Positions 154-5,578 of a stretch of DNA of 5,578 bases are shown here, piece after piece. The DNA comes from Escherichia coli (GTDB lineage: Bacteria > Pseudomonadota > Gammaproteobacteria > Enterobacterales > Enterobacteriaceae). The translations under genes and the position numbers were made by a program. The stretch is from the NCBI RefSeq assembly GCF_003334335.1, contig NZ_QOWQ01000076.1. One strand, given 5' to 3'. The notes below the pieces were generated by a model that was not told the DNA's origin, searched no databases, and worked only from the letters and a program-made list of their open reading frames with translations. Positions within the stretch are counted from its first letter, which is position 1. Each line of letters starts with the position of its first letter.

Positions 154-744
154 TTATAGTGCATCTACCATATCCCGTACCTGAGATAATAACGACTGAT
201 AATAGCTCGCGTGAAGTTCTTCCCCATCGAATACCACTGTATTACACAAGAAAGTGACATCGGCATCTTCAATACCAAGATAACTGCACATATTTTTTAA
301 ATAATCGCTTATATTTTTTTCCCAGCCCATCTGGACAAATGATTCTTTGTCTCCTCCAACCAGCGCCACCCAACGAACTTTATTGAATGGTAATTTGTGC
401 CCATCTCCATAAGCCAGCCCATTATTCCATACTCTGTCAATATATCCTTTTAGCATTGCCGGGAAGCTGTACCACCAGAGAGGAAAAACCACCACTAACG
501 TGTCATGTTCAAGCAGCTCTGAATAAAGCTGATGAACCTCTGGAGAATAACGTTTATCCATATTCTTCCAGTCTGGTTCATCTTCCGGCGTCATCACTGG
601 GTTGAAATTACGCCGATATAAATCGAGTTCCGTCACCTGTATTTTCCGCTCCATTGCCCGCTGATGGATCGCATCAGCAATATGTGCGGTCAATGAATCA
701 TGACGAGGATGGGCCCATACCAAATAAATACGTTCAGACTGCAT
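154..744 (-). CDS. ycaK: Flavodoxin-fold NAD(P)H dehydrogenase (quinone)-like oxidoreductase, 196 aa
   Basis: ORF of 196 codons, ATG at 744-742, TAA at 156-154. GGAGG Shine-Dalgarno (complement of 752-756) sits 8 nt upstream of the ATG. N-terminal RIYLVWAHPRHDS resembles the AHP motif of the KefF/KefG/MdaB flavodoxin-like quinone reductase family. Length and sequence agree with my recollection of E. coli YcaK; neighbours match the expected order. Confidence 0.88.
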   Translation of the reverse strand: MQSERIYLVWAHPRHDSLTAHIADAIHQRAMERKIQVTELDLYRRNFNPVMTPEDEPDWKNMDKRYSPEVHQLYSELLEHDTLVVVFPLWWYSFPAMLKGYIDRVWNNGLAYGDGHKLPFNKVRWVALVGGDKESFVQMGWEKNISDYLKNMCSYLGIEDADVTFLCNTVVFDGEELHASYYQSLLSQVRDMVDAL

Positions 745-843
745 AATTTTACCTCCACGTTAAGTTCTGGAGCGCACTTTACGCAGGCGGCATAATCCTG
801 TAAACGTGATGATTCAGGATGAGTTAATGAAGGATTTTCACTA
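745..843. promoter_or_regulatory. Divergent ycaK/ycaN promoter region with candidate LysR-type operator dyad
   Basis: 99-bp spacer between divergent start codons. Candidate ycaK promoter on - strand: -35 TTTACA (complement of 799-804), 17-bp spacer, -10 TAAAGT (complement of 776-781). Candidate ycaN -10 CATAAT at 791-796 on + strand, and AAGGA RBS at 830-834 nine nt before ATG 844. Dyad ATCCTG (795-800) N14 CAGGAT (815-820) overlaps the ycaK -35. All hexamers were found by eye and are not experimentally supported. Confidence 0.35.
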
Positions 844-1752
844 ATGCGGATGAATATGTCTGACTTTGCCACTTTCTTTGCCGTGGCCCGTAATCAAAGC
901 TTTCGTGCAGCGGGCGATGAGTTAGGCTTATCCTCGTCCGCCATTAGCCATAGTATTAAAACACTGGAACAACGTCTTAAAATTCGCTTATTCAATCGGA
1001 CAACCCGAAGCGTATCGTTAACGGAAGCGGGTTCTAATCTCTATGAACGATTGCGCCCAGCTTTCGACGAAATTCAGATCATGTTAGATGAGATGAATGA
1101 TTTTCGTCTGACACCGACAGGAACGCTCAAAATCAATGCCGCCCGGGTAGCTGCACGTATATTTTAAATGTCTTTACTGGTTGGTTTCACACGTGAATAT
1201 CCTGATATTAAAGTCGAGCTCACAACTGACGACTCTCTTGTCGATATCGTCCAACAGGGCTTTGACGCTGGCGTTCGACTTAGTTGCATCGTCGAAAAAG
1301 ATATGATCAGCGTGGCGATCGGCCCGCCAGTGAAATTATGTGTAGCAGCAACGCCAGAGTACTTTGCAAGATATGGCAAACCCCGCCATCCTCATGATCT
1401 GCTTAATCATCAATGTGTTGTTTTTCGTTATCCCAGCGGCAAACCTTTCCACTGGCAATTTGCAAAGGAGCTGGAAATTGCTGTCGCAGGAAATATCATT
1501 CTGGATGATGTTGATGCTGAACTGGAGGCCGTTTTGATGGGTGCTGGTATCGGGTATCTGCTCTATGAACAGATCAAGGAGTACCTTGATACTGGTCGTT
1601 TAGAATGTGTACTGGAAGACTGGAGCACAGAGCGTCCAGGCTTCCAGATCTATTATCCAAACCGCCAGTATATGTCCTGCGGCTTGCGCGCATTTCTCGA
1701 TTATGTAAAAACGGGTCAGATCTGCCAGAGTCAGCGTCACCGACCACAATAA
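844..1752 (+). pseudogene. ycaN: LysR-family transcriptional regulator interrupted by in-frame TAA at 1165-1167 (N-terminal HTH fragment 844-1167, effector-domain fragment 1168-1752)
   Basis: One reading frame from ATG 844 to TAA 1750-1752 spans 303 codons; codon 108 is TAA (1165-1167) and is followed immediately by ATG 1168 in the same frame. The 107-aa fragment carries a typical LysR winged-helix HTH (FRAAGDELGLSSSAISHSIKTLEQRLKIRLFNRTTR). The 194-aa fragment begins in the LysR linker/substrate-binding region (LLVGFTREYPDIKVEL). 107+1+194 = 302 codons, the size I recall for intact E. coli YcaN, so this is a point nonsense change rather than a frameshift. Confidence 0.75.
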
Positions 1753-3183
1753 TTATTTACTATTCGCTTTACGCGCCAGCAGCGGGAATATCAGTCCTAA
1801 TCCTACCAGCACAAACGGCGTTGCAACATTCAGCGCCAACTGGAAGGTCCACTCTGCAGTGAAGGCTTCCATTTTCGGGAAGATCCCCGTCAAACAGGCA
1901 AAGGCGGTAAAGGCAAAACACCAAATCCCGACGGTCATTGCCAGAGGCTTATTACGAATAAAGACATATTCTGGTTTATATTTCTGCGCCAAGCGAACGA
2001 CTGCAATAAATGCAACAAATACCCATAAATAACGCAGCGGCATCACTACCGAATTAAGGTTCAACAGCCATTTATAGAGATTGTTCATATCACCAATGCC
2101 GAGAGTCGGCAGCATAATCAGAATCGCCACCAGTACCAGGGTCAGAAAATAGCCATTAACGGGCGTACCAGAAGCGTTGGTACGACATAAACTGGCTGGA
2201 ATATATTTGCTGTCAGCATCACCTAATAGCACTTTAAGCGGGGCATCAATCGAGAATACCAGCGCCGCTACTTGTCCCAGGGTATTCGCAATGGCGTAAA
2301 TCACCATTAAAGTATTACCCATGTTGTAATACTCGCCCAGCTTCTGAAAGGCGTAATACTGACCGTTGGTCATTAAGTCATCCGGGATATTACGCGAATC
2401 AAACATCATCCCCATCGCCAGCGAGCCCAGAATGGCACAAACCGCAACCATCACCGCCAGGCATAACATCCCTTTTGGAAATTCTTTTCCTGGGTTGCGC
2501 GTTTGATTAACGTAAGGAGAAATCTTCTCTGCTCCGCCAACCGCGAAAACCAGCATTGAAATAGTGGTAATGTAGGTAAAGTCGATATGAGGAATGAACG
2601 TTTCCCAGGTAATGTTTGTGGTCGCAATATGCACTTCAGTAATTGCAGGCGCGGTTACCGCCATCGCCACATACAGGAGCGACATAACAAACATAGCAAT
2701 CCCTGCCACAGAACCGACGATTTTCAGCGATTTCATACCGCGTGAAGCAACCCACATAAAGAAGATAAACAGCACCAGCGTTAACCCCTGTAACGCTACG
2801 ACTGAATATTCTTTGATTAGCGAACCGTCGCCTTTCATCGCCCAACCGAGCGCAATCAGAATTGCCTGGGGTTTTTGTGCCAGATAGGGAATATGCACCA
2901 CCCAGTAGGTCCACGCGGCGAGATAAGCCAGTCCGGGTCCCATCGTGTGTTTAATCCAGGTACTGACCCCGCCCTTCCCATCTTTGAAGGTCGAGCCTAA
3001 CTGACCAACAATTAGCGCATAAGGTGTGAAATAGAGTGCAAAGATAAACACCCATGAAAAAACAACCACCAGCCCCTGGTTGGCATAGTTATTAACAACG
3101 TTGCCAAAACCCCAGACAGTGATAAAAGACATCAGCGCAATGTTGTACCATCGCAACTGTTTTTCCTGAACATTCCCAGCCAT
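1753..3183 (-). CDS. ycaM: Putative APC-superfamily permease (amino acid/organocation transporter-like), 476 aa
   Basis: The long - strand ORF ends with TAA at 1755-1753. The biological start is taken as ATG 3183-3181 (MAGNVQEKQLRWYNIAL...), which has AAGGA 9 nt upstream and gives 476 aa, the length I recall for YcaM. The protein is highly hydrophobic with multiple predicted TM segments. The ORF-track start at 3375 is a GTG inside the ycaD terminator stem and is rejected. Confidence 0.85.
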   Translation of the reverse strand: MAGNVQEKQLRWYNIALMSFITVWGFGNVVNNYANQGLVVVFSWVFIFALYFTPYALIVGQLGSTFKDGKGGVSTWIKHTMGPGLAYLAAWTYWVVHIPYLAQKPQAILIALGWAMKGDGSLIKEYSVVALQGLTLVLFIFFMWVASRGMKSLKIVGSVAGIAMFVMSLLYVAMAVTAPAITEVHIATTNITWETFIPHIDFTYITTISMLVFAVGGAEKISPYVNQTRNPGKEFPKGMLCLAVMVAVCAILGSLAMGMMFDSRNIPDDLMTNGQYYAFQKLGEYYNMGNTLMVIYAIANTLGQVAALVFSIDAPLKVLLGDADSKYIPASLCRTNASGTPVNGYFLTLVLVAILIMLPTLGIGDMNNLYKWLLNLNSVVMPLRYLWVFVAFIAVVRLAQKYKPEYVFIRNKPLAMTVGIWCFAFTAFACLTGIFPKMEAFTAEWTFQLALNVATPFVLVGLGLIFPLLARKANSK

Positions 3184-3392: not shown

Positions 3393-4541
3393 TTACACGT
3401 GAGCAACGGGTTTCGGCGTATGACCGGCGTTGCGCAGCAGCATCAGCAAATAGATAAACGATACGCTGGCGATCATGATAAACAATAAATTATCGGAGAA
3501 ATTCTGCATTAGCATAGCGGTAAATGACGGGCCAAGCAGACTTCCCACAGTATAGCTCAACAGTAAGGCCTGGTTCATCGCCACCAGTTGATGATGTTCA
3601 ACTTTCTCGCAAGCCCATGCCATCGCCACCGGATATAGCGTAAAGCCAGCGGCACCGAGGATGAATAACGCTGGGGCCATCGCCGCCTGGCTAAGCATCG
3701 CGATACTGCCGAGAATGACGACAAAGACCTGAACACGCAACACCAGCAGTCGACCAAACTTATCCGCCAGACGTCCAATCGGCCATTGTCCAAGGATACC
3801 CGCACTGACCAGTACCGCCATCCAGAAACCAATGCTGGCATTGCTCACCCCTTTGTGATTGAGGTACAGCGGCATCAGGCCATATAGAGATCCCAGAACG
3901 ATTCCTGAGATAATGCAGCCATTCACGCCAAGCCGCGCCTGACGGAGTTTTAGCATTGACGTAATTGACGTCGAATCATGGTTTTCAGCCTGCTGATTCA
4001 GCACACGCGTAAACAACAGCGGTAAGATCCCTGCCAACGTCAAACCTGTAACCCACGGCAATACGGACATCAGCTCGGTTGAAACTTTGCTGACCAGTAA
4101 CTGGCCTAAAAACGTTCCCACGTAATAAACCATCATATACGCAGCAAGCAAACGCCCACGGTTACGTGACGTCCCACTGCACATCAGCGCGCTCTCAACA
4201 ACCACCCAAATCATGGCACAGCCGACGCCCGCGACAAAACGCCAAGCCAACCAGCTCCAGAATCCAATCATCAGGCCAAGGCCGGCACAGCCAGCGGCAA
4301 AAATGAAGGAGGCCAGATAATAGCTGCGGTTAAAGCCAATGCGCTTAATGACATACCCTGTCAGCAATGTACCGACAAGGTTGCCGGTAAAATAGGATGA
4401 GCTGACAACGCCTACCTGCCATGTGGACATGTGTTCCTGGGCGAGCCAAAGCGGCACGAGTGTATTTAACACCGCAATCGCCAGAGTCAACAAAAGCAGG
4501 CCAGACAGCAAAAGCATGACAGGCTGGGTATACGTGGACAT
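3393..4541 (-). CDS. ycaD: Major facilitator superfamily transporter, 382 aa
   Basis: ORF of 382 codons, ATG 4541-4539, TAA 3395-3393. Contains the MFS signature motif A between predicted TM2 and TM3 ([13 protein letters not shown]) and about 12 hydrophobic segments. Length and sequence match my recollection of E. coli YcaD. The Shine-Dalgarno is weak: no GGAGG-like element in the 15 nt before the ATG. Confidence 0.9.
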
Positions 4542-4854
4542 GAATTAAAACCGTGAGGAAGTTCAAATTTCATGCGCATCATGCCACCGCCAAAAACATT
4601 GTCAATGGGTGAAAATACGCGATATCCCAGCGGCGGTATTATCGATTAATATTACTCATTCATAACGCTAATGCTGAAGAGATGATTAGTCTCATCTGAT
4701 TGTTTTTATTGAACTAACACAAATTTCATACGCTTCGTTCAGTCGAAAAATTTCATGGTCACAGCAAACTCATATTTCCCGTCTATGCTTTCAGAGCAAT
4801 GCATCGCGTCTGATCGATTTCAGACGTACCACTGACTCTCGAAAGGAGAAGAGG
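4542..4854. promoter_or_regulatory. 313-bp divergent ycaD/ycaC control region
   Basis: AT-rich non-coding spacer between divergent start codons. TTGTCAA at 4599-4605 gives a perfect -35 TTGACA on the - strand (complement of 4600-4605) for ycaD, with a weak -10 CATGAT 16 nt downstream. AAATTTCAT occurs three times (4565-4573, 4721-4729, 4748-4756). Strong AGGAG RBS 5-9 nt before ycaC ATG 4855. No convincing ycaC -10/-35 pair was found by eye. Confidence 0.35.
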
Positions 4855-5481
4855 ATGACCAAACCGTATGTTCGTCTTGATAAAAATGATGCTGCCGTTT
4901 TGCTTGTTGATCACCAGGCTGGTTTACTTTCCCTTGTACGGGATATCGAACCCGATAAGTTTAAAAATAACGTGCTGGCGCTGGGTGACCTGGCTAAGTA
5001 TTTCAACTTACCAACTATTCTTACCACCAGTTTTGAAACCGGTCCTAACGGCCCATTAGTTCCAGAACTGAAAGCACAATTCCCCGATACACCTTACATT
5101 GCTCGCCCGGGAAATATTAACGCCTGGGATAACGAAGATTTTGTAAAAGCTGTCAAAGCGACAGGTAAAAAACAGTTAATTATTGCCGGTGTGGTAACCG
5201 AAGTTTGCGTGGCATTCCCGGCGCTTTCAGCCATTGAAGAAGGGTTTGACGTCTTTGTCGTGACTGACGCGTCAGGGACCTTTAATGAAATTACCCGGCA
5301 TTCGGCATGGGATCGCTTGTCGCAAGCTGGTGCGCAATTGATGACATGGTTCGGCGTGGCGTGCGAGCTGCATCGCGACTGGCGTAATGATATTGAAGGA
5401 CTGGCGACGTTGTTCTCTAACCACATTCCTGATTATCGTAATTTGATGACCAGTTATGACACGTTAACGAAGCAGAAATAA
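4855..5481 (+). CDS. ycaC: Isochorismatase-family (cysteine hydrolase) protein, 208 aa
   Basis: ORF of 208 codons with AGGAG Shine-Dalgarno, ATG 4855, TAA 5479-5481. Carries the isochorismatase-family signature: LLVDHQ with the catalytic Asp at residue 19, and a Cys in VVTEVCVAFPA consistent with the catalytic Cys of the Asp-Lys-Cys triad. Length and sequence match my recollection of E. coli YcaC. Confidence 0.9.
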   Translation: MTKPYVRLDKNDAAVLLVDHQAGLLSLVRDIEPDKFKNNVLALGDLAKYFNLPTILTTSFETGPNGPLVPELKAQFPDTPYIARPGNINAWDNEDFVKAVKATGKKQLIIAGVVTEVCVAFPALSAIEEGFDVFVVTDASGTFNEITRHSAWDRLSQAGAQLMTWFGVACELHRDWRNDIEGLATLFSNHIPDYRNLMTSYDTLTKQK

Positions 5482-5515
5482 AAGAGAACCGGGGCCGAAA
5501 CCCATAAGCGCTAAC

Positions 5516-5578
5516 TTAAGGGTTGAACCATCTGAAGAATGCGACGCCTCGGTGCCTCGTTAAGACGATGCCTCGCGT
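5516..5578 (-). CDS. Possible 3' end of a convergent gene, truncated by the window edge (dmsC expected by synteny)
   Basis: The last 60 nt are GC-rich and open on the - strand up to the window edge in two frames: one ends ...TRGIVLTRHRGVAFFRWFNP with stop at 5518-5516, the other ends with stop at 5513-5511. I cannot tell from sequence which frame, if either, is real, and I could not match it to a remembered protein C-terminus. Confidence 0.25.
   Translation of the reverse strand, partial: TRGIVLTRHRGVAFFRWFNP

Follow-up and report, generated by a model that had tools for sequence, protein, structure and literature searches.

The LysR-family gene ycaN of this Escherichia coli strain is very probably a simple loss-of-function nonsense pseudogene, in which a T>A transversion at position 1166 has turned the leucine codon TTA into the stop codon TAA (L108*), and we infer that the strain is functionally ycaN-null. 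The window, by which we mean the whole 5578-bp stretch of DNA analysed, is the E. coli ycaK-ycaN-ycaM-ycaD-ycaC segment. On its plus strand, the ycaN frame opens at ATG 844 and runs for 107 codons (844–1164) to the TAA at 1165–1167; directly abutting this stop (TAAATG), and in frame with 844, ATG 1168 opens a further 194 codons that end at TAA 1750–1752. Counting its terminal stop, the frame from 844 to 1752 thus comprises 303 codons, of which codon 108 is the single internal stop. At the matching coordinates K-12 MG1655 has a single 909-bp CDS, ycaN (b0900), which encodes a LysR-family regulator of 302 aa, the length obtained from the parts present in the window (107 + 1 + 194). A previous sequence-only reading had described ycaN as split by a single in-frame TAA within a frame equal in length to the intact protein; the ORF listing and translation bear out its coordinates, frames and arithmetic, and the length of 302 aa that it assumed holds for K-12 YcaN.

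The nature of the lesion was established from a four-way alignment of 66 nt around the stop, comprising the window, strain ECCTRSRTH03, K-12 and ML35. Codon 108 reads TTA (Leu) in K-12 and ML35 and TAA in the window and ECCTRSRTH03, and the T>A transversion at window position 1166 is the sole difference in this neighbourhood. The earlier proposal of a one-base nonsense substitution is upheld by this alignment, the ancestral TTA being among the seven codons it had put forward. Intact orthologues have a sense codon at this position and continue in the same frame, as expected of a nonsense pseudogene. The stop aside, both pieces are 100% identical to the matching parts of K-12 YcaN, and over 5427 bp the window differs from K-12 by four SNPs, one of which lies within ycaN. 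A chance pair of open reading frames was considered and is ruled out by the identity of both pieces to the K-12 protein. ATG 1168 is the native internal Met109 codon and no evolved start, so the TAA-ATG junction is a coincidence of wild-type sequence. The substituted base ends a run of five T (ATA TTT TTA ATG). On the minus strand the same substitution changes AAAAAT to TAAAAT, creating a new sigma-70 promoter-like match (1190 to 1161, GTGAAA-18-TAAAAT, 9/12) directed antisense into the 5' half of ycaN; by consensus matching this candidate was called in the window and not in K-12.

In intact YcaN, Pfam places HTH_1 (PF00126) at residues 7–63 (E 2.2e-20) and LysR_substrate (PF03466) at residues 91–290, and effector-domain-only constructs of relatives in the PDB align to YcaN from residue 91–93. 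The structural frame was taken from an AlphaFold model based on 127 aligned homologues (mean pLDDT 95.2); a single-sequence AlphaFold run reached a pLDDT of 34 and was set aside as evidence. The model shows the winged HTH, a linker helix (61–89), strand beta1 (93–99), a helix (101–118) and a further strand (122–128). Codon 108 falls in the middle of helix 101–118, the first helix of the effector domain, past beta1 and 17 residues into the domain as delimited by Pfam. The sequence-only reading had placed the stop between the DNA-binding and effector domains, which is incorrect: a stop at the domain boundary is ruled out by the Pfam coordinates, the starts of the PDB constructs and the pLDDT-95 model. 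The TAA at codon 108 cuts PF03466, which is no longer on one polypeptide with the HTH as it is in LysR-type regulators. Its 107-aa product (844–1164, plus strand) consists of the DNA-binding domain, the linker helix and an 18-residue orphan tail (90–107) made up of the hinge, beta1 and half a helix (7 residues of helix 101–118). The piece from 109 to 302 (1168–1752 with the native stop, plus strand), most of the effector-binding domain but without beta1 and half of its first helix, would not be expected to fold on this model. Because the break lies inside the first effector-domain helix, after beta1, a functional effector-only fragment is unlikely; such a fragment, without DNA binding, had been entertained in the earlier reading, and by Pfam and AlphaFold neither piece corresponds to a clean domain.

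Among 3307 complete RefSeq E. coli genomes holding the segment, 33 contain an exact copy of the 61-mer centred on the stop and the remaining 3274 differ from it by at least one base; about 1% of sequenced strains have L108*. Each fragment is present on at least 1000 public contigs and has GenBank accessions (e.g. fragment protein BDY40882.1), and 3128 index blocks contain the 194-aa product, compared with 43325 containing the exact K-12 protein. Nine loci were fetched from public NCBI assemblies, and in each of them the 107-aa and 194-aa products are called as neighbouring genes; public copies of the 107-aa product contain PF00126. RefSeq (PGAP) calls ycaN of ECCTRSRTH03 (CI675_RS25255) a pseudogene with the note "internal stop"; the 194-aa piece goes under the name "LysR substrate-binding domain-containing protein" in a few records. 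Since the allele recurs in independent closed genomes and in public contigs, a base-calling artefact in the window is very unlikely, and the lesion stands as real on the strength of the 33 complete genomes, the contigs and the index blocks. The allele is, moreover, already catalogued and flagged in public annotation, and a nonsense pseudogene of an accessory regulator is routine.

Ten carrier loci were compared base by base with the window over 5427 bp. Each differs from it by 2–3 SNPs, with a single-base indel in addition in two, and apart from a few private changes the carriers have a K-12-like haplotype. They form two nested groups, one with G at position 2965, as in the window, and one with the derived A (6 of 10). 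One origin with subsequent clonal spread would account for this pattern. Among the eleven carrier loci there was no hint of more than one origin, at low power given that the region is near-invariant in phylogroup-A-like strains. Later divergence among carriers is also evident: two have a P2-like prophage beside pflA, and a third has an IS186-type insertion. The 585-bp frame downstream of the stop is intact in every carrier examined; about 10 private SNPs per 5.4 kb correspond to about 1.7 expected in ycaN against 0 observed, a level of diversity too low for inference, at which a test for purifying selection on the 3' piece has no power.

The ycaK-ycaN pair is accessory in the species. At least 80% of the ycaK-ycaN query is held by 3308 of 5426 complete genomes, and about 39% of complete E. 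coli genomes are without most of ycaK-ycaN (window 154–1640). In O157:H7 and further lineages ycaK is gone along with most of ycaN, and what persists is a 111-bp remnant of the 3' end of ycaN beside ycaM, annotated as a partial hypothetical protein. Protein clusters reveal three further independent truncations: one with a 98-aa product, one with a 117-aa product ending in ...RIFFNAFTGWFHT, and a 214-aa C-terminal YcaN remnant that is common in Shigella flexneri. The tail of the 117-aa product is as would be expected from a +1 T frameshift in the T-run at 1161–1166 on an S110P haplotype. In K-12 this run reads ATATTTTTAATG, and it is the site of both L108* and the frameshift allele; short as it is, it may be a minor mutational weak point. 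In view of these deletions and several independent truncations ycaN has been lost repeatedly in E. coli, and because the gene is so often lost, neutral or near-neutral decay is the best reading of L108*.

The surroundings of ycaN are orthologous to those in K-12 and ML35, with the same gene order. The gene is divergent from ycaK, which encodes an NAD(P)H oxidoreductase (154–744, minus strand; ORF listing and K-12 annotation), and convergent with ycaM, which encodes an APC permease (1753–3183, minus strand). Beyond ycaM lie ycaD, an MFS transporter gene (3393–4541, minus strand), and ycaC, a gene for an isochorismatase-family hydrolase (4855–5481, plus strand). On the pflA side an IS end takes the place of pflA in the window (K-12 order: pflA ... 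ycaD). Positions 1–77 are the right end of IS1414 (IS256 family), inserted 5 bp past the pflA stop, between pflA and the shared terminator hairpin. As far as ...GAACAGGCTCC the window start is identical to an IS1414 copy in strain AF58, and it covers the last 13 codons of the transposase (...FIIEFGDRLDGHF*). An insertion at this site is absent from complete RefSeq E. coli genomes, in which matches to the whole window start at base 77. At the opposite end, positions 5504–5578 are an IS186/IS421 terminus (CATAAGCGCTAACTTAAGGGTTG...) that follows GAAACCC downstream of ycaC. The same site is occupied in ML35 in the same orientation and in one TAA carrier locus (L007) in the opposite orientation, which marks the GC-rich site after GAAACCC as a hot spot of recurrent insertion. 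The two IS stubs measure about 76 nt each, the length left by de Bruijn assembly at k near 77 where a contig breaks at repeats, and the 5578-bp window is therefore probably a complete short-read contig.

The intergenic region between ycaK and ycaN (745–843) contains, by pattern matching, an inverted repeat and a promoter-like site. The repeat, ATCCTG-N14-CAGGAT at 795–820, is the sole one in this region and coincides in part with the -35 of a promoter-like site called by consensus alone on the strand of ycaK (804 to 776, minus). The earlier reading had suggested that the lesion may alter ycaK expression; the support found for this goes no further than the repeat at 795–820, and the published neighbouring responders are ycaC, ycaD and focA, not ycaK (PMC9068703). 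Rodionova et al. reported six YcaN ChIP-exo sites and named ycaC and ycaD (PMC9068703). In the part of the ChIP-exo supplement covered here a YfeD site is assigned to ycaN, rather than sites of YcaN itself, and neither this nor PMC9068703 supports ycaK as a target. On the other side of the gene, the ycaN stop (1750–1752) and the convergent ycaM stop (1753–1755, minus strand) adjoin with zero spacing, and no terminator-like hairpin was found at this junction. The convergent excludons of K-12 include ycaM-ycaN (PMC12288877). With translation of ycaN ending early, its transcript could become exposed to Rho, and antisense transcription into ycaM could fall as a result.

A further observation concerns the divergent ycaD-ycaC intergenic region, where the window has a private T>A change at position 4648 that was found in none of the 5232 complete genomes holding the 61-mer around it. 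A ycaD promoter-like site (4605 to 4578) has its -35 about 43 bp downstream of this change, and the derived A creates the palindrome TAATATTA. With ycaC and ycaD being reported YcaN responders, it is conceivable that this change is linked to the ycaN lesion; it could also be an assembly error.

For the loss-of-function reading, the expected course of events is simple. Ribosomes would terminate at UAA 1165–1167 and no full-length YcaN would be made. LysR-type transcriptional regulators (LTTRs) depend for tetramer assembly on two interfaces, that of the linker helix and that of the effector domain (see also PMC6698644), so an effector-responsive YcaN tetramer could not form. The 107-aa product would retain the whole HTH and linker helix, and its residual activity should amount at most to effector-blind occupancy of operators. 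The role of YcaN is still listed as unknown (PMC9068703). In BW25113 a ycaN deletion reduced ycaC and increased ycaD and focA; about 700 genes responded in medium supplemented with threonine, and the mutant had a negative phenotype on formate (PMC9068703). Extrapolating from the K-12 deletion, an L108* strain is predicted to express less ycaC and more ycaD and focA, and to use formate less well. The strains carrying L108*, about 1% of those sequenced, would be without functional YcaN and could offer ready-made, natural null strains to set beside the K-12 deletion. Along with the common loss of ycaK-ycaN and the other truncations, L108* supports the view of ycaN as an accessory, frequently lost gene. 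The "LysR family" proteins of 107 aa and 194 aa in GenBank are best regarded as halves of one pseudogene.

The adjacency of stop and start raises the alternative of a two-piece regulator, in which ribosomes terminate at UAA 1165–1167 and start again at AUG 1168, and an active YcaN is rebuilt from the two pieces. The TAA directly precedes the ATG, termination-reinitiation at abutting or very short stop-start distances is documented in E. coli (PMC6728339), and the 194-aa piece appears as a separate protein in some GenBank and RefSeq records. [quoted passage not shown] Removal of the SD abolished reinitiation in one of five E. coli pairs and lowered it by 60–90% in three others (PMC6728339), so that an SD was needed in four of the five. 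A restart at this abutting AUG, merely the native Met109 codon, would be possible in principle but inefficient without an SD. The pieces are, furthermore, no autonomous folding units: the cut falls mid-helix and takes beta1 off its sheet, all solved effector-domain constructs begin near residue 91, and a 194-aa restart product without this core strand should not fold. Nor is the split conserved, being restricted to one near-clonal haplotype in about 1% of genomes. Restart at AUG 1168 should be weak and its product defective, and we regard an active two-piece YcaN as highly improbable.

Somewhat less improbable, though still unlikely, is that a dimer of the 107-aa HTH and linker-helix fragment sits on YcaN sites as an effector-blind repressor or anti-activator, in which case the regulon would be rewired and not simply lost. 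The fragment has a complete HTH_1 and the whole predicted linker helix 61–89, the ycaN start has a usable SD (dG -5.5), and the DNA-binding domain of another E. coli LTTR, YhaJ-DBD 1–93, is stable and dimeric both in solution and in the crystal (PMC11739112). Set against this, the 18 extra residues at 90–107, torn from the effector core, would be exposed and are probably a target of proteolysis, and LTTR regulation normally requires a tetramer contacting two sites. There is also no sign of selection for L108*, which has a frequency of about 1% and a single haplotype, and outright deletion of ycaN is far commoner. The stronger version, in which a stable, effector-blind mini-regulator of 107 aa occupies YcaN operators and fixes the state of ycaC, ycaD and focA (perhaps also of ycaK), is more doubtful again; if it were true, 4648 T>A could be a compensatory operator or promoter mutation. 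Two remaining explanations, both barely credible, would restore the full-length protein. One is a sequencing or assembly artefact with T as the true base at 1166, for which it can be said that the window resembles a short-read contig, with an IS stub of about 76 nt at each end, and that 1166 is at the end of the T5 run; the change is, however, a substitution and no homopolymer-length error, and the identical allele was obtained by different laboratories and platforms in the 33 complete genomes and recurs on the public contigs. The other is that carriers read through the stop codon or possess an ochre suppressor tRNA. Nothing in the window speaks for this explanation, and against it stands that in E. 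coli termination is more efficient at UAA than at either other stop codon; no tRNA or recoding signal was seen in the window, and an Rfam scan of it found no RNA family.

The allele was also compared with known systems. K-12 YcaN (b0900), an uncharacterised LysR-type protein, shares gene, position and sequence with the window; it differs in having TTA at codon 108 and a length of 302 aa, a protein that cannot be made from the TAA allele of the window. ECCTRSRTH03 and the other L108* carriers are identical to the window in nucleotide change and haplotype, beyond which the window strain has the IS1414 end left of ycaK, the IS186/IS421 end right of ycaC and the SNP at 4648. The other ycaN loss alleles (the deletion, the frameshift, the 98-aa truncation and the Shigella 214-aa remnant) share the outcome, in that intact YcaN is gone, but their molecular lesions differ and their origins are independent, with the frameshift lying in the shared T-run. 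An early nonsense codon in a regulator gene followed by an in-frame start is likewise found in the restarts of lacI. In classical E. coli genetics the restart polypeptides of lacI nonsense mutants have a foldable core without the DNA-binding headpiece; the would-be restart product of ycaN is unlike these, since in the AlphaFold model it begins mid-helix within the effector domain and is without beta1. The lacI restarts and engineered LTTR dimers of DNA-binding domain and linker helix are the closest mechanistic parallels, and no more than resemblances. Finally, YhaJ-DBD 1–93 and BenM-DBD (PDB 4IHS) are dimers of a winged HTH and linker helix, and the 107-aa YcaN piece spans the equivalent region. 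The BenM-DBD dimer was solved with DNA, and the DNA complex of YhaJ was modelled on that of BenM (PMC11739112). Both are engineered constructs cut at the hinge, whereas the natural YcaN fragment is 18 residues longer and extends into the effector domain.
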